Of a DNA stretch of 64,000 nucleotides, positions 7,978-20,272 are shown one piece after another (positions within the stretch are counted from its first letter, which is position 1; every line of letters begins with the position of its first letter). This DNA is from Lachnospiraceae bacterium. GTDB taxonomy: Bacteria > Bacillota > Clostridia > Lachnospirales > Lachnospiraceae. The notes beneath the pieces are model-generated. The model was given only the letters and a program-made list of their open reading frames with translations. It did not search any database and had not been told where the DNA came from. Made by a program: the position numbers and the translations under genes. The stretch is from positions 4,336 through 68,335 of the forward strand of contig JALEPL010000031.1 in NCBI GenBank assembly GCA_022766245.1, read 5' to 3'.

Positions 7978-9342
7978 TTACTTTCTTCTTTTCCTGCGTT
8001 TCTTCTTCTGCGTCTGAATCCTATGGTATTTTCTTTTTCGCATCTCACTGTGAGAAATGTGCTTTCTCTGGTTCGCACGATACCACTGAAGAAACCTCCA
8101 GCCACCGTAGGCTGCACCTGACACAACAACAAGAGCCAGCAATATAATGCCCATTATTCTGACAAAAACTCCTGTCTTTTTTCCCGACTGTTTGGGACTT
8201 TCCACTTCCTCCATGACTTCAGATGATTCTTCTGCCCTGACAATTGTAACATCTGCCCCGCCAATTTCATGCGACGCATAGGTATACCCCAGAAAAGCAA
8301 TCTCGTCATTCTCTCCACTTTGTTCTTTCAGCGCTGCGGTTGCATCGGCAAATGATGCCGTCTTCGGCAATACAATGCATCCCGTTTGATCCAGCACCAC
8401 GGTATCCTCTGTTCCGGACGCATATAGTTCCTGCAGCTTTTGTTCTGTATAATACGCCTCATTCTCAGAAACATTCCACAACTGAAAATTTTCAAAAGCG
8501 GCATCAAACAGCACTGTTGTGTCCTTATACTGCATCGTTGTCTTTTCATTCAACACAACGCAAATTAAATCCATCCCATCCCGCGATGCATATGTCACCA
8601 GGGTATTTTTTGCAACATCGGTATACCCTGTCTTGCCCCCGATACATCCCTCGTACAAATACTCTGTCCCCTTGTATGAACTGAACATCTGATGATGATT
8701 CCTCAGAAAAGTTTCCTCTTCATGCTTATTGGTGGGTGGAATCGTGTATTTCTGCGTACCTATAATCGTTCGAAAGGTATCATATTTCAACGCTTCTCTG
8801 GAAATGAGTGCCATATCATAGGCGCTGGTATAATGATTCTCATCCGGCAGACCATGGGGATTTGTAAAATGAGTATTCTCGCATCCCAGTTCTTTTGCCC
8901 TGTCATTCATCATCTGGATAAAGGTATCATAATCCCCACCCACATGTTCTGCAATCGCATACGCACACTCATTTGCAGATACCAGCATCAGTGCGTACAG
9001 GCACTGCTCCATAGTCATAACCTCATCCAGATCTCTGGCGATATGAGCCCCATCTACACCATAGACCGCATTGGCAGAAAAAACCACCTCTTCATCCATA
9101 TCACAGTTCTCTATAGCCAGCAGTGCCGTCATAATCTTGGTAATACTGGCGGGATAGAGTTCCTCATGTGCGTTTTTCTCGTACAGTACAGTTCCAGTGG
9201 AAGCCTCCATCACAATGGCTGAGGGACCATCGATGGCCGGCCCGGTGGGCCAGACATCTTCTGCCCGAACCTGCATCACATTTGTCTGCATCAGATATAC
9301 CATCAGAAGCAGCAAACATTTCCATGCTTTCACTTTGTTCAT
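7978..9342 (-). CDS. D-alanyl-D-alanine carboxypeptidase (peptidase S11) with C-terminal membrane anchor
   Basis: Signal peptide (start MNKVKAWK at 9342), PASITK (SxxK), SAN (SxN), GGKTG (KTG), C-terminal TM helix and K/R-rich tail. Confidence 0.92.
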   Translation of the reverse strand: MNKVKAWKCLLLLMVYLMQTNVMQVRAEDVWPTGPAIDGPSAIVMEASTGTVLYEKNAHEELYPASITKIMTALLAIENCDMDEEVVFSANAVYGVDGAHIARDLDEVMTMEQCLYALMLVSANECAYAIAEHVGGDYDTFIQMMNDRAKELGCENTHFTNPHGLPDENHYTSAYDMALISREALKYDTFRTIIGTQKYTIPPTNKHEEETFLRNHHQMFSSYKGTEYLYEGCIGGKTGYTDVAKNTLVTYASRDGMDLICVVLNEKTTMQYKDTTVLFDAAFENFQLWNVSENEAYYTEQKLQELYASGTEDTVVLDQTGCIVLPKTASFADATAALKEQSGENDEIAFLGYTYASHEIGGADVTIVRAEESSEVMEEVESPKQSGKKTGVFVRIMGIILLALVVVSGAAYGGWRFLQWYRANQRKHISHSEMRKRKYHRIQTQKKKRRKRRK

Positions 9343-9360
9343 CTTATTCCCCCATTTATT

Positions 9361-9438
9361 GGCACGAGGTGTCACCGCAGGTGACGGATACGCCCCCAAA
9401 GGTCGCTTCGCGCTGCTTTGGGGACAAAACCTGGTGCC
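9361..9438. repeat. REP-like nested palindromic element
   Basis: Outer arms ggcacgagg/cctggtgcc (8 of 9 complementary) enclose hairpins gtcacc-gca-ggtgac and ccccaaag...ctttgggg. Single copy in the window. Confidence 0.5.
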
Positions 9439-9482
9439 GCTTCAGTTTTCATATCTGACTTTACACTTCCTTTTTACACCAT

Positions 9483-11051
9483 TTATTGTGCAGCTTCCGG
9501 TGTTGTTTCCGGCTGGGTCGCCGGGGATTCCTGTGTCTGAGTCTCCGGAGTTGGCGCTTCCTGAGCCGGAGTTTCCGCAGACGCTGCCAAAGCAGCGTCA
9601 TTCCATGCAGCGATTGCCGCATTTACCGTAGCCTCATCCTGCGTAGCAATTGCTGCATTTACCGCAGCAGATGCATTCGGATCAGCAGAAGCAGTACCAA
9701 CCAGAATCACTTTATCTGATGCCCGGTAACTGCTGGTATTAAACACCTCATTGCTCTCCACTTCCCCATTCACTGTAACGATTTTGCGGAGACGTGCTTT
9801 ATATCCTACATGTTCCGACTGATCCACAGTAGTATATCCGATCGGCTGATCCGGCGCAGCTTGATATACCACACCGGGAGTTGTGGTTGCAAGTACCTCA
9901 CTTACAAATTCCACTTTTCGGTTGCTGTCTCTGGTCTCCTCTCCGTAGACATTAAAATACACATAACCTCCGGAAGTATACCCCTCAATATAGACTGGTG
10001 AATCCAGATTATTCTTAAACTTAAAGTCCTTGTAGGTTCCTGCGATGGCAGCATCCTCCGATGGTTTTACATAGCTGACCGTCATGGAATGCGGGTAGCG
10101 CTCTATAACTTCCAGTTCTGCCCGGATTACCGCATTATACAAAGTAGTGGAAACCTGACAGATTCCGCCTCCTATAGATTCAACCACTTTTCCATTCTCG
10201 TAAGCGCCTCCCACTTCATACCCATTTTCCCGGACAAAAGGACTGGCCACTTCATACACGGAGAACTCATCTCCCGGATATAACAACGCCCCATTTATCT
10301 TAGATGTTCCATTCTGTACATTCTGCTTTCTTCCGGCATTGGAGTTCGCATAAGAAGTACGGAAGCTGCCTAATACATCTTTTACTTTGGACAATTCTTC
10401 TTCTGTATGTTCCGGTTCTACCACATCGGCCACAAGCTCCACGACAGCGCTTTTTCCGTCCCACTCAGATGCAAAGAAAGATTCTACTCCGGCAATGGAG
10501 CTCTCCACATCTACATAGATTCCTTCACTCTCCGGTATGGTAATAAATGCTCCATCTTCCCGCTTCAGCTGGGCATCCTGAACTTCAGAATTCAGAATAT
10601 CTTCGCTGTTTTCAATAAACTTAACAACCTCAGCCTTATCGATTCCGTATTCCAGAGGAAACACTTTATCTTCCCGCTCTAAATCCTTCATGGCCATATA
10701 CCGACTCAGTAGATTTCCCTTTTTGCCGATATAAGCAGCTTCTTTTAACACTTCAGGATTTTGCCAGAAAACTCCCAGTTCACCGGCTTTAGCACTTACT
10801 TCCTTGCTCCCTGCCTTAAACGTGATCTTTTCATTTCCTATCTCATCAAAATACTCTTCCACTGCCTGGGACGCTTCTTCCTGTGTCATACCACCCACGG
10901 GGATTTCACCAATAAACACACGTTCCGGTATCAGCGCATCTTGTGATTCCTCCGCACGTGCAGAAATCCCCATACAGGATCCCAGCGCCAGGCCGCAAAG
11001 GATAACTCCAGTTACCAGATACTTTTTCTTAATTTTTTTCATAGCAGCCAC
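9483..11051 (-). CDS. VanW-family cell-wall protein (PG-binding region + VanW domain + G5-like tail)
   Basis: Signal peptide, GRKQNVQNGTSKINGALLYPGDEFS, IGGGICQVSTTLYNA, ERYPHS, DAAIA, DFKFKNN; P/E/T/A-rich C-terminus. Confidence 0.88.
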   Translation of the reverse strand: MAAMKKIKKKYLVTGVILCGLALGSCMGISARAEESQDALIPERVFIGEIPVGGMTQEEASQAVEEYFDEIGNEKITFKAGSKEVSAKAGELGVFWQNPEVLKEAAYIGKKGNLLSRYMAMKDLEREDKVFPLEYGIDKAEVVKFIENSEDILNSEVQDAQLKREDGAFITIPESEGIYVDVESSIAGVESFFASEWDGKSAVVELVADVVEPEHTEEELSKVKDVLGSFRTSYANSNAGRKQNVQNGTSKINGALLYPGDEFSVYEVASPFVRENGYEVGGAYENGKVVESIGGGICQVSTTLYNAVIRAELEVIERYPHSMTVSYVKPSEDAAIAGTYKDFKFKNNLDSPVYIEGYTSGGYVYFNVYGEETRDSNRKVEFVSEVLATTTPGVVYQAAPDQPIGYTTVDQSEHVGYKARLRKIVTVNGEVESNEVFNTSSYRASDKVILVGTASADPNASAAVNAAIATQDEATVNAAIAAWNDAALAASAETPAQEAPTPETQTQESPATQPETTPEAAQ

Positions 11052-11091
11052 TCTTCCCTTACAAAGAATATTCCATTGTATCCCAGCAATA

Positions 11092-12930
11092 CTAAATGGA
11101 AAGCGAATACTGTTCGCACAACATAGTTACTGTCATAACAATCATAAGATAATCAATTTCATAAGCACCCATCAGTTTGAAATCACTCTGACTATATATT
11201 TTTTTCATCTTATTCACGTAATCTACATCAAATACACCGTATTTTTTTATCAATGAATCACTCAGGAATTCCTCTCCACCGCTCTGTTTTACCATAGCAG
11301 ACATTCCAGGTGCCTGAAACGGGAATTTTTTTCGTTTTAAGATTTCCTGAGGAACGATTCCTTCTGTAGCTTTTTTAATGATATATTTCTCATTGGTTCC
11401 TTTAAGCTTGTATTTGTCCGGTATGGTCAGCACAAAGGAAATCAATTCGGTATCCAGGAACGGATGTCTTCCCTCTACAGAATGTGAGAAAAACATTCGA
11501 TCGCCATGCTCTCCCAGCAAATGATCAGACAAACGAAGCTTGTAATCAATATAGGATCGTCTCTTAAAGGTGCTTAAGCCTTTTACCCGTTCCAGATTAA
11601 TGGGGCTTGTGGCAAACGCTGAGAACTGATCAATCTCCCCCCGCACATTGTCACTGTATATCTGGGTATGTATCTTTCTGATTTCAGGGTGGTTCCGCTC
11701 ATAACGGAAATAGGGATCTCCCCATAATCGTTCATTCACTTCGCACTCTTCTGCAGACATCTGATTCTTCTGCATATTTCGAAACAGATCCACCATGTAG
11801 CCGGCATATCCGTAAAAGAATTCATCGGATCCCTGACCGGTCAGAACTGCCTTTGCCGGTGATGTGCTCACCAGCTCAGACAAAAGATACGCTGCAACGT
11901 CATAGCTTTCCTTGACTGCAGACTCTGCATGATAGATTACATTCGGTATATTCTTCCAGATTTCTTTTTCTGTCACTCTGGTACTGTAATGAGTAGAATT
12001 CACATATTCACAAATAATCTTCTGGAATTGCTGCTCATTCAGATCACCGGAATCTATCTCTGCCGAAAAAGAATAATAACTGTTTAGCAGATATTTTCCA
12101 ATGTAACAAGCCACAACCGAACTGTCCAAGCCACCGGAAATATAAAATCCGATGGGCACATCTGCAATCAGTCTTCTGGAAATGGCATTCTTCAATAATT
12201 CCCGAAGCTTCTCTGCATAGTACTCCTCGCCCTTATCCTCTTCCTCAGCACTGTAAATAACATCCCAGTATTCTATATTTCTTATTTCCTGTCCTGCCAC
12301 TGCCTGAATCATATGGCCACATTCCAGAGAGTAAATTCCATCGAAAAAAGTATTGGGAGAAACCACACCGGGGAAATTCATCAGCTGATCCACAGCCTTC
12401 AGATTCAGTTTTCTGCTGGCACCGGGATACTCCAGGATTGCCTTAATCTCGGATGCAAACACCAGTTTATCATTAATCTGGCTGTAAAACAATGGACAAA
12501 TCCCCACATGATCTCTCACCAAAAGTAACTGATTGATTTTCTCATCATACAAGGCAATGGCAAACTGACCATTCAGCATCTTCGGGAAATCCATTCCCTC
12601 CTCTTCATACAGATGAAGAATAACCTCCACATCGGTTTTCGTGCGGAACACATGTCCCTTCGCAATCAAATCATCCCGAAGCTCCTGAAAGTTAAAGATT
12701 TCTCCATTACATATCATGGATATCGTCTTGTCCTCGTTTTGAATAGGCTGCATACCTCCATCCAAATCCAGAAAGCTGAGGCGATTAAAGCCTAAGGTAA
12801 TCTGCTTTAATTCCAAAGTCTGACTTCCATCCGGCCCACGATGGCGGATGGCACGAAGCATCCGTTCCACAATGTCCTTCTCTGGCTGTGTTTTCTTATT
12901 CAAACTATAAATTCCACAGATTCCACACAT
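11092..12930 (-). CDS. asnB: Asparagine synthase (glutamine-hydrolysing), AsnB family
   Basis: Ntn start MCGICG, HRGPD, CNGEIFNF, ISGGLDSS, LTGQGSDE, SVEGRHPFLD. Confidence 0.93.
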   Translation of the reverse strand: MCGICGIYSLNKKTQPEKDIVERMLRAIRHRGPDGSQTLELKQITLGFNRLSFLDLDGGMQPIQNEDKTISMICNGEIFNFQELRDDLIAKGHVFRTKTDVEVILHLYEEEGMDFPKMLNGQFAIALYDEKINQLLLVRDHVGICPLFYSQINDKLVFASEIKAILEYPGASRKLNLKAVDQLMNFPGVVSPNTFFDGIYSLECGHMIQAVAGQEIRNIEYWDVIYSAEEEDKGEEYYAEKLRELLKNAISRRLIADVPIGFYISGGLDSSVVACYIGKYLLNSYYSFSAEIDSGDLNEQQFQKIICEYVNSTHYSTRVTEKEIWKNIPNVIYHAESAVKESYDVAAYLLSELVSTSPAKAVLTGQGSDEFFYGYAGYMVDLFRNMQKNQMSAEECEVNERLWGDPYFRYERNHPEIRKIHTQIYSDNVRGEIDQFSAFATSPINLERVKGLSTFKRRSYIDYKLRLSDHLLGEHGDRMFFSHSVEGRHPFLDTELISFVLTIPDKYKLKGTNEKYIIKKATEGIVPQEILKRKKFPFQAPGMSAMVKQSGGEEFLSDSLIKKYGVFDVDYVNKMKKIYSQSDFKLMGAYEIDYLMIVMTVTMLCEQYSLSI

Positions 12931-12931
12931 T

Positions 12932-13996
12932 TTAGTTCTCCTCTTCTATCCCGTAATATTCATACTGAGCCTGCTTTTCCGCCTCGTATGCTGCGATCTT
13001 TTCCTTCCAGATTTCACACAAATGCTCCTCATTCCGCCGATCCGGCAATCCCACATCCTCTGATAAGTATTTGCCCAGATAACCGGAAAGCTTTTCTGCT
13101 CCCGAAAGGTTCATGTGAAGTCCGGCATCATATGTATCCGTACTATAATCAATTCCAATCTCATCTGTGAGCTCCAGGAAATTAATATACTCCAAATTAT
13201 GAGCTGCCGCATAGTCTTCTACCTGAGCCTCATATTCATCATACCAATACGGATAAAGACTGGGTGCCTTAATCAAAATAAGTCTGATTCCATTCTCTTC
13301 ACAAAGCGCTGTCATCATATCAAGATATTTCCATGCATTGTCACCAAAACTGTAATCTGCCAGGACCTTTCCATCCGGCACATTTTCTGCAGGTTTCACA
13401 TCCACACGCATATAGTACCCGTTATGGGTCACCTGTTTTTTTCGGAACATGTAGGTTACATCCGTTGCAGAAAGATCACTCCATCTGGTATGATATCGCA
13501 AAATAGGAAATACATAATCGAGGAAATGCTCTTCTTCTTTCATGGATGCCTGAATCGCTTTTATTTTGGAAGGCGACCACTTCATCCCCTCCAATGTCAT
13601 ACGGTTATAGGCCTCACTCTGGGACTCATTAAATTGCAGAGACTGTACATTAAAAATTACCACATCCGGCGTCTCATATCGAAGTGTGTCCTCCAGCATA
13701 TAATAAGACTGCCAGATATACTGCTCCGCACTTCCTCTGATATAGCTGTTGATTCCGTAATCTTCCCACAATACGATGGGCGAGAAATTCTCGTAAACCT
13801 CACAGTCACCTACAAAGATCACATCAAAATCCTTCTCCTGCTGGTAGTACTCTTCGATGAAAGCACCTTCTACCACTCCATCTACATACTTGGGAACAAG
13901 CAGTCTCTGTAAAAGAAATAGACTTGTCACCACCACCAATGCGGACAGAATAAATTTTATACATGCTCGTTTTTTTAACTTTCCTTTCATATCCAC
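12932..13996 (-). CDS. Membrane-anchored SGNH/GDSL-like (DltD/AlgJ/PatB-like) acyltransferase with Cys at the nucleophile position
   Basis: N-terminal TM helix; block I DVIFVGDCE (TGT codon at 13804-13802); block V YDAGLHMNLSGA; directly downstream of an MBOAT gene. Confidence 0.72.
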   Translation of the reverse strand: MDMKGKLKKRACIKFILSALVVVTSLFLLQRLLVPKYVDGVVEGAFIEEYYQQEKDFDVIFVGDCEVYENFSPIVLWEDYGINSYIRGSAEQYIWQSYYMLEDTLRYETPDVVIFNVQSLQFNESQSEAYNRMTLEGMKWSPSKIKAIQASMKEEEHFLDYVFPILRYHTRWSDLSATDVTYMFRKKQVTHNGYYMRVDVKPAENVPDGKVLADYSFGDNAWKYLDMMTALCEENGIRLILIKAPSLYPYWYDEYEAQVEDYAAAHNLEYINFLELTDEIGIDYSTDTYDAGLHMNLSGAEKLSGYLGKYLSEDVGLPDRRNEEHLCEIWKEKIAAYEAEKQAQYEYYGIEEEN

Positions 13997-14016
13997 CTGT
14001 TCCCTTAACCCATAAT

Positions 14017-15609
14017 CTAAAACTGATTATAAATGAACTGACTGGCATCATATCCGATACCATAGGCTCCCATCAAAAGTATCACTAAAAACAAACCATA
14101 CCATATGCAAACCCGCACCGGATATGCCTGCGCAGCAATTCTGTCTCTGACACTTCCCCGACGCTGGAGCAGACTAACTCCGAGAAGTACCATCACTCCC
14201 ATTGCTAAAATCACATAATCCAAGGCTGTAAGTCCCAGATTCATCAAGGAACCATCCCACAGGATATGCCAGTTCCCAACAGTAAACATGGACGCCAGCA
14301 TGCCAAAGGTAGTTGACAGAGCAGAATAACAGTCAAAAATATTCAGCACACACACCAGCAAAAAGGTACGTCCAATCTGAAACACTTTGTACCAGTTTTT
14401 TTCTTCAACCGGGAAACGATTGTGAAACTTTGCATAAAGAGGTTCCAGTTCCTCCGAAATCATCAATACTGCCCAGTTCAGCAATCCCCATACAATAAAA
14501 TTCCAATTGGCACCATGCCAGATTCCTGTTGCAAACCAAACCACGAAAGAAGACAGGTACAACGGAAGACGCCGTCCCACCACCTTGCCAAAATGTTTTG
14601 CAGAAAACTTAGAAAATTTCTGCATCGCCTTACAGGTAGATACCGGATAAAAGAGATAATCTCTAAACCAACTACACATGGTAATATGCCAACGACGCCA
14701 GTATTCTTTCAATGATTTTGAGAAATATGGCCGGTTAAAGTTCTCCTGCACTGTAATTCCCATAGTCTCGGCAATACCAATGGTAATATCGATTCCTCCG
14801 GTAAAATCTGCGTACAGTTCCAAAGTATAGAACAACATACCCACAAATATGTACGCACCATTATATGTCGCTGTATCCTTGATTATCGTATTCACAGCCA
14901 CAAGAATCCGATCTGCAATTACCATCTTTTTGAAATAACCCCAGAGAATTCGCTGCAGACCATAGCAGACTTTTTTGCTGTCAAAAGCATGCTCCTCATA
15001 GAGTGTCTTGCTCAAATCCGAAAAACGGCTGATTGGTCCCTGGATCAGCTGCGGGAAAAACGACACAAACAAAGCAAATTTGAATACATTTTTCTCGGCC
15101 GGATATGCCCCACGATATACATCGATGAGATATCCCACCGCCTGAAACGTATAAAAAGAGATTCCCAGCGGCAATGCCAGCGTAAGGTAAGAAAGCTGTC
15201 TGGTCTGATGGAACATGGACAGCACACCATTTACGTTGTCAATCATAAAATTAGAATACTTCACCACCGCAAGGATGCCGATATTCAAAATAATGCAGGC
15301 TGCGACCCATCTCATACGGATCTTTTTCTGCTTATCCTTATAATTCTTTTTTTCTTCTTTTGATAACTCCGCCTTATGTTCTTTTATGTATTTGCTTTGA
15401 TTATTTGCATTCGATTCTATCTTACGTGCCGTCAGATAAGTAGTCAGCGTAGTCACCAGAATATAGATTAAATATTCCGGTCCGGCTATAAAATAAAAAA
15501 CATAGCTGGCCACTAATAAAAGTGGCCACTGACATTTCTTGGGAATAAGATAATAAACTACAAATAAGATTAAAATAAAGCCTAAGAACTCATATGATGT
15601 AAAGAGCAT
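14017..15609 (-). CDS. MBOAT family acyltransferase (DltB/AlgI/PatA-like) with fused DltX-like tail
   Basis: LPLGISFYTFQ, FFPQLIQGPI, ENFNRPY, EYWRRWHIT, catalytic His in TGIWHGA, C-terminal FIYNQF. Confidence 0.95.
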   Translation of the reverse strand: MLFTSYEFLGFILILFVVYYLIPKKCQWPLLLVASYVFYFIAGPEYLIYILVTTLTTYLTARKIESNANNQSKYIKEHKAELSKEEKKNYKDKQKKIRMRWVAACIILNIGILAVVKYSNFMIDNVNGVLSMFHQTRQLSYLTLALPLGISFYTFQAVGYLIDVYRGAYPAEKNVFKFALFVSFFPQLIQGPISRFSDLSKTLYEEHAFDSKKVCYGLQRILWGYFKKMVIADRILVAVNTIIKDTATYNGAYIFVGMLFYTLELYADFTGGIDITIGIAETMGITVQENFNRPYFSKSLKEYWRRWHITMCSWFRDYLFYPVSTCKAMQKFSKFSAKHFGKVVGRRLPLYLSSFVVWFATGIWHGANWNFIVWGLLNWAVLMISEELEPLYAKFHNRFPVEEKNWYKVFQIGRTFLLVCVLNIFDCYSALSTTFGMLASMFTVGNWHILWDGSLMNLGLTALDYVILAMGVMVLLGVSLLQRRGSVRDRIAAQAYPVRVCIWYGLFLVILLMGAYGIGYDASQFIYNQF

Positions 15610-15635
15610 ACTCTAATTCCTTAATTTCATCTAAA

Positions 15636-16232
15636 TTAATTCAAAACAGGGGAATCGTACTCAATAGATGCGATATCCTCACCATTCAGAATGAAACACA
15701 GTTTTGTACCATTATTTTCATAGGTAATGCTTTTATCTGTTTCCTGATAATCAGAGCCGTAAGCGGCAATAATATCATCCTTTGTCATGGACAAATCGAT
15801 TCCCTCAGGAGTTGACACACTGTCATCCTTTAAAATAATGGATGCAATCAAATCCTGTTCTCCATCCGGATAAGTCTCAATCTGGAAACCGGAATAGGTA
15901 TAAATCTTAGCAATTCCCTGTGCGGCACAGCTGGGCTGCTCAAAATAGCTGTCCGGCTCTCCTAATGCATCCACGATACTACTCATATCCATGTCTACAG
16001 CAATTTCAACACCATTGCTTTCAAACACAAAGCCTGAAGCGATCTCTGCATCTGCCTCTGCATCATCTGCCACTGCGTCATCTGCTGCTGTATTCTCTGT
16101 AGAAGTCTCCACACTGCTATCCGTGACATTGCTGTCTGCCTGGGTAGCACCATCAGACCCACAACCAGCCAGCATACACATACCTAATACACATACACAT
16201 GCAAGCGTATTTTTTACTCCTCTGTACTTCAT
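15636..16232 (-). CDS. Lipoprotein of unknown function
   Basis: Lipobox LAG-C, acidic low-complexity linker, compact domain with IVDALGEP and LSMTKDDIIAAYG motifs. Confidence 0.75.
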   Translation of the reverse strand: MKYRGVKNTLACVCVLGMCMLAGCGSDGATQADSNVTDSSVETSTENTAADDAVADDAEADAEIASGFVFESNGVEIAVDMDMSSIVDALGEPDSYFEQPSCAAQGIAKIYTYSGFQIETYPDGEQDLIASIILKDDSVSTPEGIDLSMTKDDIIAAYGSDYQETDKSITYENNGTKLCFILNGEDIASIEYDSPVLN

Positions 16233-16266
16233 CTTTTCCTACCTTTCTTCCCGATACCGTCAACAA

Positions 16267-16509
16267 TTAGTCCTCGTCCATCAGACTGCTGATTAACTCG
16301 CACAGTGCATCCAGCGAATTAAAGTTTTCCGGAACAATCTTGTCCGCTGAAATCACCACATCAAACTCATCGTTAATGTCTGATATCAGTGTGACAATGT
16401 CAAAAGAATCCAGCACCTTGCCGTCAACCAGTTCGGTACAGTTCTCAAAGTCCTCATCCGGATGTAATCCCTCTAAAATCTCTAATAATGTGCTTCTAAT
16501 TTCTTCCAT
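16267..16509 (-). CDS. Acyl/aminoacyl carrier protein (DltC-like)
   Basis: 80 aa, highly acidic, phosphopantetheine site in VLDSFDIV, PENFNSLDAL; overlaps the upstream adenylation gene by 14 bp. Confidence 0.92.
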   Translation of the reverse strand: MEEIRSTLLEILEGLHPDEDFENCTELVDGKVLDSFDIVTLISDINDEFDVVISADKIVPENFNSLDALCELISSLMDED

Positions 16510-18016
16510 TTTTTTTCTCTCCCTTGTACATATTTTTTAATAAAACGCGATTGATTTTTCCATTCGCGGTGAATGGCATTTCTTCTAACTGTTCCACATG
16601 ATTCGGTATCATGTAACGAGGAAGCATGCTTTTCAGCTTCGTAACCAATTCCCTAGATGTAATATTACCTACATAGTACAATACAATCTTGCCCTTTTCT
16701 CCATCATAAACACAGCAACAAAGCTTAATTTCCTCAATTGTATTCACATTAGCCTCTATCTCACCAAGCTCAATTCGATGTCCCATGTGCTTAATCTGGT
16801 AATCCTTTCTGGACACAAACACAAGCTCACCATACTCATTATACTTTCCAATATCACCTGTCCGGTAAATAATTTCCGGATATGCCGTATTTAAAGGATT
16901 CTGTACAAAAGCCTCGGATGTTTTCTGTGGGTTGTTGTAATATCCCAGAGTAACTGCGGTTCCACGGATACAGATTTCTCCCTCATTTGCCAGCTTATTC
17001 TCCTCATCCAATAGCAGAATCTCTGTATTTTGAAATGGTCTTCCGATGGGAATCGGCTCATTCTCCTGCAATTCCCGTTCCAAGCGGTAATAACAGCACA
17101 TACCGGTACCCTCGGTAGGACCGTACAGATTCACAAAGGATGCCTCCGGCAATGCCTCTCTCCAGATTCGGTACTGCTTAATCGGAAATACTTCACTTCC
17201 AAACGCAATGGTCTTCAGATATTCCGGTTTGACCATCTGGAAGGTTCCAAAGGCCGATATCATGGTCAATGCTGACACAACCCAGCATATGGTATTTACC
17301 TTATGTTCATTTAAAAACTCTACCAGCTTAGCCGGGAACATAAATAAACTCTTTGGCACAATATAGGTGGTAGCGCCAAACTTCAGAGTCGGATAGATTT
17401 CCTTTAAGCACGCATCAAAATACAACGGGGTCTGATTTGCAAATACAGTATCCTCATTAAACTGCAGAACCTCGGACAACTGCTCAATATAGTCAATGAC
17501 TGACCGATGACAGGCTACAACCCCCTTGGGTACTCCGGTAGAACCAGAAGTGAATACAATGTATATCGGATCTATATCCAGAGCATTTTTTCTGATTACG
17601 TCCAATGCCTTTGCATCCTCCGGTGTTTTGATAATTTCATCATACAGGCAAATCTCACCCTGATAATGGAAGGTCTCTGCTTTTTTCTTTGTATTTTCGT
17701 CACATATAATCAGTTCTGCCTTACAATTCTCCAGAATCAAATCAATTCTGCTCTGAGGCATTTCCTCATCAATGGGCACATAAAAGCATCCTGACGTAAT
17801 AACACCTAAAAACGCAATGATAGTTTTGGGATGTTTCTCCATAAAAACCACCACCGGTTTTCTGTATAGCCCCTTCTCATGAATATACGTACCAATGGAA
17901 TGACTCTGCTCATAAACCTGCGCAAAAGTATAGCCTTCCTTTTCGTTGGCATATGCCACTTTATCCGGCACCCTTTTCACAATCGCATCCAAATAGGACA
18001 AAACATTATTTTCCAT
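16496..18016 (-). CDS. Stand-alone amino-acid adenylation enzyme (DltA-like fold, pocket not D-Ala-like)
   Basis: FTSGSTGVPKGV (A3), YFDACL (A4), NLYGPTE (A5), YRTGD (A7), GHRIELGEIE (A8), TANGKINR (A10). Confidence 0.93.
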   Translation of the reverse strand: MENNVLSYLDAIVKRVPDKVAYANEKEGYTFAQVYEQSHSIGTYIHEKGLYRKPVVVFMEKHPKTIIAFLGVITSGCFYVPIDEEMPQSRIDLILENCKAELIICDENTKKKAETFHYQGEICLYDEIIKTPEDAKALDVIRKNALDIDPIYIVFTSGSTGVPKGVVACHRSVIDYIEQLSEVLQFNEDTVFANQTPLYFDACLKEIYPTLKFGATTYIVPKSLFMFPAKLVEFLNEHKVNTICWVVSALTMISAFGTFQMVKPEYLKTIAFGSEVFPIKQYRIWREALPEASFVNLYGPTEGTGMCCYYRLERELQENEPIPIGRPFQNTEILLLDEENKLANEGEICIRGTAVTLGYYNNPQKTSEAFVQNPLNTAYPEIIYRTGDIGKYNEYGELVFVSRKDYQIKHMGHRIELGEIEANVNTIEEIKLCCCVYDGEKGKIVLYYVGNITSRELVTKLKSMLPRYMIPNHVEQLEEMPFTANGKINRVLLKNMYKGEKKNGRN

Positions 18017-18045
18017 GTTAATCTCCAGCTTTCTGTATTAGTTTC

Positions 18046-18771
18046 TTACCTCGTGATCAGTTGATGATACTCCTCTTTCAACGTACCGCATAACTCCACG
18101 GAACATTTTGCCAAAACCTGCATTGCATCCAGATATCCTGCCCCGATTTGTTCATCTCTTCTTATCATGGAAAGCTCGGTACAGCCCAAAACAATTACCT
18201 GAGCCCCCTTTTGCCGCAATTCCTCCGACACCCGTTGAAACCGGTCCATTTCAGCAGGTTTTGTGGCCTTCACATTCTGATAAATCAGATGCATCACATC
18301 TTTCTGCCCATGTTCTTCCGGCAGAATCACTTCGATATTTCTAGCCTGCAGCGACTTTTGAAACAAACCGCTCTGTACGGTTCCATCTGTGGCCATAAGT
18401 CCCACTCTTTTAACATTTTGTATTTCTAAATAATTCGTGGTCTCTTCAATGATATTGATGATGGGTGCCGGAATCTCCCTAGACAACTCATCATAAAAAT
18501 AACTGGCAGTAATACAGGGAATGGCAATTACTTCTGCACCATAATCCACCAGATGTTTTCCCACTTCCACCATGGGAACTTTTGGATTCTCGCTGCTATG
18601 CCCCACAATATAACTGGTTCTATCGGGGATAGACGGACAATTATGTATCATCATCTCAATATGTTCCTGGTCCGTATCCGCCTTTGTCATTTCAATCACC
18701 ATCTGCATGAAAAAAGCCGTTGCCATAGGCCCCAGGCCGCCAATCACACCCAATGTATGCATTCTAAACAC
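18046..18771 (-). CDS. Aspartate/glutamate-type amino-acid racemase
   Basis: LGVIGGLGPMAT, PDRT, two catalytic Cys in IAIPCITA and LGCTELS. Start may be MHTL at 18762. Confidence 0.9.
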   Translation of the reverse strand: MFRMHTLGVIGGLGPMATAFFMQMVIEMTKADTDQEHIEMMIHNCPSIPDRTSYIVGHSSENPKVPMVEVGKHLVDYGAEVIAIPCITASYFYDELSREIPAPIINIIEETTNYLEIQNVKRVGLMATDGTVQSGLFQKSLQARNIEVILPEEHGQKDVMHLIYQNVKATKPAEMDRFQRVSEELRQKGAQVIVLGCTELSMIRRDEQIGAGYLDAMQVLAKCSVELCGTLKEEYHQLITR

Positions 18772-18797
18772 CTTCCTATAATCAAACCAAACAGACT

Positions 18798-20198
18798 TTA
18801 TTGTATCGTAGGATATGCGGACGGATCATAGGCATGGCTTCCGTTATGTGTATTGGAATATGCCATAATCTCTTCATCCGAACAATAGAAGAATGTCTTT
18901 CCATCTACTCTTCTGGTGCAATCGAAGTGATACCAGCCCTCTCCCAAATCAATCAGATTCCAATAATGGGTTCGCCGTGGATTAGAAAAACCAATATCCA
19001 TATTATTAATTCCTGCTCTGGTCAATAAGCACTTTGATGTGGATGCATACACAAAACAATCACCCTTCTGGTAAAACAGTCCACGATAAGCTCCCTGTAC
19101 CCAGTTTGTTTTGGGTGTCCCATCCGACCAACCCACATGACTGTTTACCCAGTTAAATATCGCTTTTGCTTTATCATACTGGCTCATTTCCGGAGTTGTA
19201 ATCTGTGCCAGTACCTCATCAGCCTTCGCATTAACAATTTCCTCCGTGGCAGTTTCCACCCCTGCAGGTTTCACATGAACCTTGGTGGATTCTTCCGTCA
19301 CATTTCCCGCTGCATCCTTGGCAATATATGTAACATTATAATCTCCCACCTTGTTCAGATCCACTTCACTGCTATCGATTGTAAGCTGCACATTCTCATC
19401 ATAGTCATCCGTTACCGTTACATTCTTCTTATAGGATATGCTGCCACCCACAGCAACAGACAATTCCTTTACTCCCTCTATAACCGGAGGTTCCGTGTCT
19501 TCCAACACATCCATCACCGTACAGACCTTAACCGTATTTCCACCCTCATCTGTCACATACAATGAAACCGCCTGCTTTCCGGCAGCTGAAAAATCCGGCG
19601 TTTCCACGAACTCTGCCATCGTTGCTGTCACATCTTCGACTGTCTCAATAAAATCATCCGGCTCCAATACCTCGTCCTTGAAGGTCTGTGCTTCCTTTGC
19701 CTCCACAACAGGTGCGATTGTATCCGTCACATGAAGCAAGGATGTATATTCTTTCCCGGAAATGGTGATTCCAATCTCATAATCAGCCACCGTGTTCAGA
19801 TTCAGTTCATCCTCCCAGGGCTCTGAGAAATCGGCCTCCACATACCCATGTGTCAAAAACTCTGACAGTGCCGGAAAGTTTGCTCCCGCCTCAATTGTAA
19901 TCTCATCCACGACGCCTGGTCGGATAACCAGATACATCACAGCGGCAACCAGAACTATCAGCACAGACTGAGCAAATCTGCTTTTCCCAGCAGAATGCTC
20001 TTTCCGATATCGTTTTATCTTTACATTCGACTTGCTCTTTTTCTGTTTTTTTAATGAATTCTCGTCCGGTTTCGCGCCTGACTGATGTTTCTTTCTATCA
20101 CGCTTTTCCCGTTCACTCTGTTCTCTTTTCTGACGCTTTGCCCTTTTTTTCTTTTTCCGGTCAATGCAGTCATGCATCTCTATTTTTTTATCAATCAT
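18798..20198 (-). CDS. Membrane-anchored protein with Ig-like repeats and a C-terminal transglutaminase-like domain
   Basis: K/R-rich N-terminus, one TM helix, repeats (DTIAPVV / DTEPPVIEG...DDYD...Y.VTY.AKDAAGN), catalytic triad GDC-FVYA / HYWN / YHFD. Confidence 0.85.
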   Translation of the reverse strand: MIDKKIEMHDCIDRKKKKRAKRQKREQSEREKRDRKKHQSGAKPDENSLKKQKKSKSNVKIKRYRKEHSAGKSRFAQSVLIVLVAAVMYLVIRPGVVDEITIEAGANFPALSEFLTHGYVEADFSEPWEDELNLNTVADYEIGITISGKEYTSLLHVTDTIAPVVEAKEAQTFKDEVLEPDDFIETVEDVTATMAEFVETPDFSAAGKQAVSLYVTDEGGNTVKVCTVMDVLEDTEPPVIEGVKELSVAVGGSISYKKNVTVTDDYDENVQLTIDSSEVDLNKVGDYNVTYIAKDAAGNVTEESTKVHVKPAGVETATEEIVNAKADEVLAQITTPEMSQYDKAKAIFNWVNSHVGWSDGTPKTNWVQGAYRGLFYQKGDCFVYASTSKCLLTRAGINNMDIGFSNPRRTHYWNLIDLGEGWYHFDCTRRVDGKTFFYCSDEEIMAYSNTHNGSHAYDPSAYPTIQ

Positions 20199-20243: not shown

Positions 20244-20272
20244 AGGATATCATCATTTACTATTCTTGTCAA
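20244..20272 (-). promoter_or_regulatory. Putative sigma-A promoter at the head of the cell-envelope operon
   Basis: Minus strand TTGACA (20272-20267), 17-bp spacer, extended TGa-TATCCT (20249-20244). Confidence 0.55.

Follow-up and report, generated by a model that had tools for sequence, protein, structure and literature searches.

A cassette of seven genes was identified in the 64-kb stretch of Lachnospiraceae DNA analysed here (contig JALEPL010000031.1 of assembly GCA_022766245.1; hereafter the window). It is real and widespread and, judged from its sequence, very probably directs a Dlt-like aminoacylation of the cell envelope with an amino acid other than alanine. The genes encode a transglutaminase-like ectoenzyme, an aspartate-type racemase, a stand-alone adenylase, a carrier protein, a lipoprotein, an MBOAT and an SGNH-fold protein. 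They are followed in the window by genes for an AsnB-type glutamine amidotransferase, a VanW-domain protein and an S11 DD-carboxypeptidase. The original prediction had assigned all ten genes to one system, in which an Asp-type racemase and AsnB are joined to a Dlt-type relay instead of an ATP-grasp ligase. That combination was found, and an ATP-grasp ligase is not among the conserved genes; the conserved unit is the seven-gene cassette and not the ten-gene run. The prediction also stated that no characterised pathway of such composition was known, and none was found by searching the literature in full text. The cassette is undescribed in the literature searched and is a variant within the Dlt/MBOAT–SGNH principle.

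The conserved gene set and its distribution

Protein families were assigned with Pfam and NCBIfam profiles, and equivalog cut-offs were those given by NCBIfam. The adenylase was scanned against one genome per species, which gave 80 related loci, nearly all from Lachnospiraceae metagenome-assembled genomes and isolates. The ten window proteins were mapped onto these loci, and all locus open reading frames (ORFs) of at least 90 amino acids (aa) were clustered into families. Many of the loci are truncated by contig ends, and the family counts are affected by this.

Exactly seven families travel together, namely the adenylase (80 loci), the carrier protein (77), the racemase (76), the transglutaminase-like protein (65-74), the MBOAT (73), the SGNH protein (72) and the lipoprotein (63). 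No other family was present in more than 14 of the 80 loci, and AsnB was the sole additional family seen in more than 9. Conservation of the predicted gene set in relatives was therefore partial: seven of the ten genes recur, the VanW and S11 genes are not conserved, and AsnB is accessory.

At least four gene orders were found among the loci. The first runs from the transglutaminase-like gene through those for the racemase, adenylase, carrier protein, MBOAT and SGNH protein to the lipoprotein gene; the second, which is that of the window, has the lipoprotein gene ahead of the MBOAT gene. The third has the order transglutaminase-like protein, racemase, lipoprotein, adenylase, carrier protein, MBOAT, SGNH protein and AsnB. 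The fourth is split, with carrier protein, MBOAT, SGNH protein and AsnB preceding transglutaminase-like protein, racemase, adenylase and lipoprotein. That linkage persists through this shuffling of gene order is strong evidence that the seven genes serve one function. At one locus without a racemase gene (L014), the upstream genes are purF-like and purB-like, and no substitute supply enzyme was found there.

About 31 of 200 sampled Lachnospiraceae genera (about 16%) had an SGNH orthologue with an identity of at least 50%. At an identity of at least 47%, orthologues were present in 42 of 401 Clostridia genomes, belonging to at least nine GTDB families.

Two loci have unusual copies. In genome G177, which belongs to the window's genus, the adenylase match at L104:10639-12221 falls into two adjacent pieces (10639-11250 and 11253-12158); the ORF of the first part ends early, which may reflect a frameshift or a pseudogene. 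In genome G017, locus L105 (G017:C1:320000-334000) contains a further copy of the cassette, which has diverged more. Its adenylase is 64% identical and has the same specificity code (given below), its SGNH protein is of the Cys type, and no recognisable racemase or carrier gene stands alongside. Another SGNH orthologue (59% identity) is encoded on a different contig of that genome.

Adenylase, racemase and the predicted substrate

The stand-alone, DltA-like amino-acid adenylase (16496-18016, minus strand) scored 337.7 bits against TIGR01733, above the cut-off, and 296.4 bits against the DltA equivalog TIGR01734, for which the cut-off is 559.85. Its specificity code, D-A-K-C-A-G-L-G-M-K, was placed in register by HMMER alignments to LgrA. 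It agrees with the code first read from the sequence, which is also correct in the FCGE register, and is nearly invariant, being identical in 77 of 81 homologues. In canonical Lachnospiraceae DltA the code is D-L-M-V-L-C-T-V-A-K, with an FCGE signature. Asp235 and Lys517 are present in the cassette adenylase, and because of this its substrate is expected to be an alpha-amino acid. Lys239 is invariant, which speaks for a side chain that is anionic or strongly polar. This lysine is the hallmark of the code of Glu-activating non-ribosomal peptide synthetases (NRPSs), DAKDLGVVDK. The NRPS code for Asp is DLTKVGHIGK, and Asp codes use Lys278/His322.

The second enzyme is a racemase of the pyridoxal phosphate-independent, two-thiol kind and of the aspartate-racemase type (18046-18771, minus strand; Asp_Glu_race PF01177; TIGR00035, 211 bits). 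It had been predicted to be an Asp/Glu racemase, and among solved structures it is closest to a true aspartate racemase, that of Pyrococcus horikoshii (Ph AspR; 1JFL, E 4e-49, 170 bits). In the same ranking of solved structures, glutamate racemase scored 44 bits and YgeA 38 bits. Both catalytic cysteines are kept: Cys86 and Cys197 align to Cys82 and Cys194 of Ph AspR, and Arg51 and Lys168 correspond to Arg48 and Lys164, which we take to contact the substrate carboxylates. All four residues are shared by 95% or more of the 77 homologues.

These features point to an acidic substrate as the probable one, and to D-Asp specifically with about equal weight for and against. Several results count against D-Asp. 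On the adenylation code alone D-Glu fits better, since Lys239 marks Glu. The racemase also scored 211 bits against the cysteate racemase model NF052483 (CuyB; cut-off 190), which equals its general asp_race score, so that automatic annotation could label it a cysteate racemase. Moreover, racemases of the TIGR00035 type include broad-specificity as well as cysteate racemases. The same machinery might accordingly handle another amino acid, either D-Glu (D-Gln in the window's organism) or another polar D-amino acid, for example D-Ser or D-cysteate. Lys239 together with the small residues at positions 299, 301 and 330 is nearer to the Glu code than to the Asp code, and both the NF052483 score and the presence of broad-specificity enzymes in the asp_race subfamily agree with such a substrate. 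However, glutamate racemases are much more distant from the cassette enzyme than is the true Asp racemase, a dedicated racemase for D-Glu would presumably be redundant because this amino acid is already made by MurI, and AsnB chemistry natively amidates the beta-carboxyl of Asp. D-Glu or another polar D-amino acid as the substrate of this machinery is, in our estimate, rather unlikely.

It is extremely improbable that the cassette is this organism's divergent Dlt system and serves the D-alanylation of teichoic acid. The parts are analogous (adenylase, carrier, MBOAT and SGNH protein), five LtaS-sized sulfatase-domain ORFs are present in the window's genome, and canonical dlt was not found in a search of that genome, where each of the three MBOATs is under the DltB cut-off and the one further adenylase is unrelated to that of the cassette. 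However, every Dlt equivalog cut-off is missed, the code does not show the FCGE/Cys301 signature retained by canonical DltA from this bacterial family, and the racemase in the cassette is an Asp/Glu-type enzyme and not an alanine racemase. Canonical dlt also occurs together with the cassette in G177, where DltA is above the cut-off, and in G017. The missed DltA, DltB and DltC cut-offs, the different code and this coexistence argue against D-Ala as the substrate. Mutual exclusion of the cassette and canonical Dlt was also considered as a clue to the acceptor; it was uninformative, since the two coexist in these genomes and canonical DltA was above cut-off in just 7 of 201 Lachnospiraceae genera.

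Two other functions were considered and rejected. An NRPS or secondary-metabolite cluster was dismissed since no condensation or thioesterase domain is present and the enzymes downstream are extracytoplasmic. Transfer of a fatty-acyl group was ruled out by Asp235 and Lys517 and by the linked racemase.

Carrier protein, MBOAT and SGNH protein

The carrier gene (16267-16509, minus strand) starts 14 bp inside the end of the adenylase gene. It encodes a protein of 80 aa (PP-binding, PF00550) with a putative phosphopantetheine site at D-S35-F; D34-S35-D37 was invariant in 78 homologues. Against the DltC equivalog the protein scored 25.9 bits (cut-off 68).

The MBOAT (14017-15609, minus strand; PF03062) has 530 aa and scored 157.5 bits against the DltB equivalog (cut-off 375). 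His308 and His365 are invariant (74 of 74 homologues), and in an alignment to DltB (6BUG) His365 corresponds to His336. The C-terminus, SQFIYN[QR]F, is likewise invariant in all 74 proteins; the window protein ends in SQFIYNQF, with FIYNQF encoded at 14020-14037 and its tyrosine at position 527. In MBOAT–SGNH systems the tyrosine of an FxYxxF motif carries the acyl group to the SGNH partner; the motif is on the microprotein DltX in Dlt and on the fused MBOAT C-terminus in PatA/AlgI-type systems, and the acyl-Tyr shuttle mechanism is established for DltX and PatA (PMC12148441). Fused-motif MBOAT systems use acyl-CoA and hence have no carrier protein (PMC12148441). Because such systems are otherwise without a carrier, the cassette would be a hybrid, in which a Dlt-type adenylase and carrier feed a PatA-type MBOAT.

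The window's genome encodes two other MBOATs, neither with an adenylase or carrier protein. One (501 aa; C20:61773-66348) lies in a polysaccharide-synthesis cluster, between a 370-aa ORF and a GlmS-like gene. The other (445 aa; C10:23115-25378) has a 308-aa partner and is flanked by an ORF of 415 aa and by one of 603 aa whose N-terminus is GTPase-like.

The SGNH protein (12932-13996, minus strand) has 354 aa and an N-terminal membrane anchor, and gave a weak DUF1574/GDSL profile match. An AlphaFold2 model (pLDDT 90.3) was matched by Foldseek to GDSL acylhydrolases, to DltD (6pfx, 6o93 and 3bma) and to PatB (7tlv), and at the level of this model the SGNH fold of the DUF1574-like protein is confirmed. 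DUF1574 is one of five SGNH families without a known function (PMC9487903). Block I reads G-D-C65-E (13799-13810), and GDCE is present in 73 of 73 homologues; the predicted nucleophile is thus Cys65 instead of serine. Block V reads D290-A-G-L-H294, with D290 and H294 invariant. Its form, D-x-x-x-H, departs from the usual D-x-x-H, which counts against the proposed relay.

AsnB, an accessory amidotransferase

The AsnB-type glutamine amidotransferase is encoded by an accessory eighth gene (11092-12930, minus strand), which starts 1 bp past the SGNH stop. It scored 445.8 bits against TIGR01536 (cut-off 267), starts with MCG (Cys2, the N-terminal nucleophile of the family) and has the PP-loop SGGLDS at residue 265. 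AsnB had been predicted as part of the system: its place directly after the SGNH gene is real and conserved, and its role is accessory, as the gene was present in 15 of the 62 loci with enough flanking DNA (window included). Because AsnB is found in just these loci, the core is expected to work without amidation in most species. AsnB is immediately downstream of the SGNH gene in every locus that has it, the 14 mapped ones spanning three cassette orders. Its orthologues (74-80% identity) were found solely in genomes where the gene adjoins the cassette, and twelve other cassette-bearing genomes had AsnB relatives of at most 39% identity or none. This restriction to the cassette-adjacent position argues that AsnB is not a general housekeeping gene that stands here by chance.

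AsnB co-evolves with the MBOAT and SGNH proteins only. The loci with AsnB form a single clade in the MBOAT tree (Shimodaira–Hasegawa-like approximate likelihood ratio test, SH-aLRT, 100) and in the SGNH tree (SH-aLRT 99), and the adenylase and racemase trees both rejected this grouping (approximately unbiased (AU) test, p 1.6e-6 and p 3e-52, respectively). Eleven residues separate loci with and without AsnB, five in the MBOAT and six in the SGNH protein; there are none in the other five cassette proteins. Five of the six SGNH residues are, in sequence, no more than six residues away from catalytic block II, III or V. The MBOAT of loci without AsnB has Arg423 and Arg429 (L-R-x-f-D-C-Y-R-D-V-P), and in loci with AsnB residue 423 is Asn and Arg429 is lost. 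By ungapped extension of the alignment, residue 423 matches Phe400 of DltB, which is part of the active-site pocket (PMC11035591). The adenylase code is the same in both groups of loci.

Both kinds of relay occur at one locus (L038:1-12116), where two MBOAT–SGNH relays stand side by side with one transglutaminase-like gene, one racemase gene and one adenylase gene. One relay is of the AsnB-less type (Arg423/Arg429, Gln91/Leu93, own lipoprotein) and the other is AsnB-linked. Most simply, both variants would activate one and the same amino acid; AsnB would then amidate its side-chain carboxyl on the carrier, and the MBOAT and SGNH proteins of the AsnB-linked variant would handle a neutral amide and not an anion. 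In Lactococcus lactis, AsnH amidates D-Asp solely once it is attached to the peptidoglycan precursor (PMC4155827). Amidation of the carrier-bound residue by the cassette AsnB is conceivable, with the balance leaning slightly against it.

Three considerations weigh against such a role. The operon AsnB is the genome's only AsnB-class enzyme and there is no AsnA, so that it might serve, wholly or in part, as the housekeeping asparagine synthetase; residue 423 is placed in the active-site funnel by an ungapped extension four residues past the HMMER alignment; and the residue differences are confounded with the monophyly of the AsnB-bearing clade. Alternatively, AsnB might not act on the carrier-bound residue at all, and be either a housekeeping asparagine synthetase or a precursor amidotransferase (AsnB1/LtsA-like, acting on meso-diaminopimelate) that alters the SGNH acceptor. 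We consider this unlikely, though with a fair number of points in its favour: the enzyme is the sole one of the TIGR01536 class in the genome, it scores far above the Asn synthetase cut-off, AsnB paralogues amidate diaminopimelate in precursors (PMC4155827), and an altered acceptor would likewise account for the SGNH residue differences. The orthologues found only beside the cassette and the position directly after the SGNH gene in three cassette orders speak against it, as does the MBOAT, which is acceptor-blind in the DltX/PatA model and yet has five group-specific changes, including the two lost arginines. The substrate residues of the synthetase site could not be compared with solved structures, since the C-terminal domain was too weakly aligned to the E. 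coli and human enzymes. The best match was the hydroxyamidotransferase 7YLZ.

Surface proteins and the acceptor

The transglutaminase-like ectoenzyme (18798-20198, minus strand; Transglut_core PF01841, 1.5e-9; Ig-like PF16403) has a basic cytoplasmic tail, one transmembrane helix, an Ig-like domain and a C-terminal Transglut_core domain. At least 90% of the 69 homologues compared retain G379-D380-C381, H411, H424 and D426, and a sequence search of the PDB gave no significant match to the protein.

The lipoprotein (15636-16232, minus strand; lipobox LAGC24) had no match above threshold in Pfam or NCBIfam. In its AlphaFold2 model, residues 65-198 have a pLDDT above 90 and follow a disordered linker after the lipobox. 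Foldseek matches to 4ifa, YjgB (4ygt) and YfeY (2qzb) indicated a tandem BLIP/DUF4309/YfeY-like domain, and the modelled fold thus resembles one that is usually protein-binding or inhibitory. C24 and C102 are invariant (40 of 40) and are the only cysteines of the protein; the segment P-S-C102-A (residues 100-103; 15924-15935, minus strand) is likewise invariant. The position of the gene varies within the cassette.

The transglutaminase-like gene, the lipoprotein and the Cys-type SGNH protein occur together, and all three features are absent from the paralogous cassettes of the Ser type that are described below. Three surface proteins with an invariant cysteine, together with the switch from Ser to Cys, suggest thioester chemistry and possibly an amide product. 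It is a speculative and rather improbable extension of this that an extracytoplasmic thiol relay ends in an amide bond instead of a labile ester, and places a D-Asp or D-Asn branch on peptidoglycan without an ATP-grasp ligase. Such a relay might run from the carrier thioester to an ester at MBOAT Tyr527, a thioester at SGNH Cys65, possibly lipoprotein Cys102, and Cys381 of the transglutaminase-like protein. Its end, no less tentatively, might be the alpha-linked transfer of D-Asp (D-Asn with AsnB) onto a wall amine, for instance the epsilon-amino group on the diamino acid of the stem peptide.

A lipoteichoic-acid-like acceptor is possible, given the LtaS-sized sulfatase-domain ORFs mentioned above; a TagF-type enzyme was not found in the window's genome. 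Peptidoglycan and a glycopolymer are alike candidates for the acceptor, and the bond may be an ester or an amide.

Proposed mechanism

On balance we favour an extracytoplasmic aminoacylation cassette of seven genes that works on the Dlt/MBOAT–SGNH principle, in the window with an accessory amidotransferase. The two-thiol racemase would convert the L form to the D-amino acid, most likely D-Asp. The adenylase would then activate the alpha-carboxyl group and load the amino acid onto Ser35 of the 80-aa carrier, and in the AsnB variant the side-chain carboxyl would be amidated on the carrier (D-Asp to D-Asn). The MBOAT (His365/His308) would pass the aminoacyl group across the membrane to its own Tyr527 in FIYNQF, which would replace a separate DltX. 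The membrane-anchored SGNH protein would receive the group as a thioester at Cys65. Finally, the group would be placed on an envelope acceptor, possibly with the assistance of the transglutaminase-like Cys-His-Asp ectoenzyme and the Cys102 lipoprotein.

Gene layout, promoter and neighbouring genes

The ten ORFs are all on the minus strand and run from 20198 to 7978 in the ORF list of the window. The gaps along the run are 26, 29, -14, 34, 26, 20, 1, 40 and 83 bp, so that both the coordinates and the spacing (-14 to 40 bp through VanW) given for ten co-directional genes were reproduced. A strong terminator of the upstream gene was located at 20419-20399. Shortly downstream of it and ahead of the first gene is a promoter-like site, TTGACA-17-TATCCT with an upstream TG (20244-20272, minus strand; 10 of 12 consensus positions). 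The sigma-A promoter that had been placed there stands as a consensus site; such matches are no commoner than in shuffled sequences (38 in the region and 31 +/- 5 in the shuffles). A genuine promoter at 20272-20244 is plausible, and the putative operon structure is read from the gaps and consensus sites.

The VanW-domain protein (9483-11051, minus strand; PG_binding_4 PF12229, VanW PF04294, G5 PF07501) has a transmembrane segment, PG_binding_4, a VanW domain with Cys298 in GGGICQ, a G5 domain and a disordered tail rich in Ala, Pro, Thr and Gln. The S11 DD-carboxypeptidase (7978-9399, minus strand; Peptidase_S11) has the motifs SITK, SAN and KTG and a C-terminal anchor. Both had been counted as parts of the system, which did not hold: they stand beside the cassette in one of the 80 loci (L008 alone), no such family is among the conserved neighbours, and they resemble a known pair of LD-transpeptidase and carboxypeptidase. 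In a comparison of domains, the VanW protein has the architecture of Clostridioides difficile Ldt4, a demonstrated LD-transpeptidase with PG4, VanW, G5 and a disordered tail (PMC11348318). DD-carboxypeptidases provide tetrapeptide donors to LD-transpeptidases (PMC13753750). Because of the Ldt4-like architecture, this donor-supply role and the lack of synteny with the cassette, the two genes are regarded as an independent module and, by analogy, look like a self-contained pair for 3-3 cross-linking.

It is very unlikely that all ten genes form one system that installs D-Asp or D-Asn on peptidoglycan, with the VanW protein and the DD-carboxypeptidase as its wall-side parts. The genes form a co-directional run with gaps of 40 and 83 bp at its end and no strong terminator before 7978, and locus L008 has the identical ten-gene order. 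LD-transpeptidases can also exchange the terminal D-Ala of stem peptides for free D-amino acids, which was counted in favour of a ten-gene system. The single occurrence among the 80 loci tells against it, as does the self-sufficient known function of the VanW/S11 pair (PMC11348318, PMC13753750).

Significance

Dlt D-alanylation governs surface charge, cationic-peptide resistance and host signalling, and we know of no other characterised MBOAT–SGNH system for the aminoacyl decoration of Gram-positive envelopes. If the proposal is correct, the cassette would add another system of this kind, one that uses an amino acid other than D-Ala. It occurs in Clostridia that are abundant in the gut and rumen and seldom have canonical dlt. 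Surfaces of species with and without AsnB would then differ in charge, Asn being cationic and Asp zwitterionic, and such a difference would bear on immune recognition, on the adsorption of phages and on encounters with bile and antimicrobial peptides. The proposal would also give the SGNH family DUF1574 a first role and provide a natural Cys-nucleophile SGNH enzyme, and it predicts an AsnB homologue that works on a carrier-tethered amino acid. A carrier-protein donor could then feed a fused-motif MBOAT of the PatA/AlgI type, a class described as acyl-CoA-dependent (PMC12148441).

Comparison with known systems

The cassette resembles Dlt in its general plan. As in Dlt, an adenylase that stands alone would charge a small carrier, an MBOAT sharing the catalytic His pair would bring the aminoacyl group to the outer side, onto the tyrosine of an FxYxxF motif, and a membrane-anchored protein of the SGNH fold would come next in the relay. 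However, the cassette proteins are not orthologues of the Dlt proteins and miss all equivalog cut-offs. The cassette code has Lys239 and is without Cys301, and an Asp-type racemase is linked to it. Its MBOAT has 530 aa and FIYNQF, whereas canonical DltB in loci L103 and L106 has 382-391 aa and no such motif; the shuttle motif is fused to the MBOAT in 74 of 74 cassette proteins and is on the separate DltX in Dlt. No conserved small-ORF family was found in the cassette, the clustering having covered ORFs of at least 90 aa without an exhaustive microprotein search. The cassette SGNH protein belongs to DUF1574 and has a predicted Cys nucleophile, whereas DltD has Ser and a family of its own (PF04914), to which the Pfam profiles gave no match for the cassette protein. 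The cassette further adds the obligatory transglutaminase-like enzyme and BLIP-like lipoprotein and the optional AsnB.

With PatA/PatB and AlgI/AlgJ/AlgX the cassette shares a long MBOAT (about 530 aa) that has two additional helices at its C-terminus, a fused FIYxxF acyl-Tyr shuttle and a separate SGNH partner. Those systems are fed by acyl-CoA and have no carrier (PMC12148441), whereas the cassette has an adenylase in 80 of 80 loci and an adjacent carrier in 77 of 80. Its acyl group would be an amino acid, and its SGNH nucleophile is predicted to be Cys.

The D-Asp cross-bridge pathway of L. lactis and Enterococcus faecium (RacD/Racfm, AslA/Aslfm, AsnH) resembles the cassette in that a dedicated aspartate-type racemase is encoded with a D-Asp-using enzyme, and in the amidation of D-Asp by an AsnB-family enzyme after attachment, as proposed for the cassette. 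In contrast, the cassette would activate the alpha-carboxyl group as an adenylate and then a thioester, where the cross-bridge pathway forms a beta-aspartyl phosphate. Transfer would take place outside the membrane, and amidation at the beta position would give Asn instead of the iso-Asn that results at the alpha position. No ATP-grasp D-aspartate ligase was found in the window cluster or among the conserved families of the 80 loci, the remaining genome not having been searched.

AlmEFG of Vibrio cholerae is similar in that a DltA-like adenylase and a carrier are repurposed to modify the envelope with an amino acid other than D-Ala (glycine, on lipid A). To our knowledge, AlmG is a lipid A acyltransferase of the cytoplasmic face, and the system has no MBOAT–SGNH relay, racemase or amidotransferase.

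Similar in gene content are paralogous cassettes of the Lachnospiraceae (loci L089-L102), in which adenylase, carrier, MBOAT and SGNH genes occur together, with a fused [FL]IYxx[FY] motif and a DUF1574-like SGNH protein. They differ in having Ser in SGNH block I and no racemase, transglutaminase-like protein, lipoprotein or AsnB. Their adenylase codes include DVK[IVT]MSLCNK and SMLYLALDIK; the latter is without Asp235, and its substrate is probably not an alpha-amino acid. These cassettes appear to be likewise uncharacterised, and their presence suggests a wider set of uncharacterised envelope acylation systems that are fed by carrier proteins.

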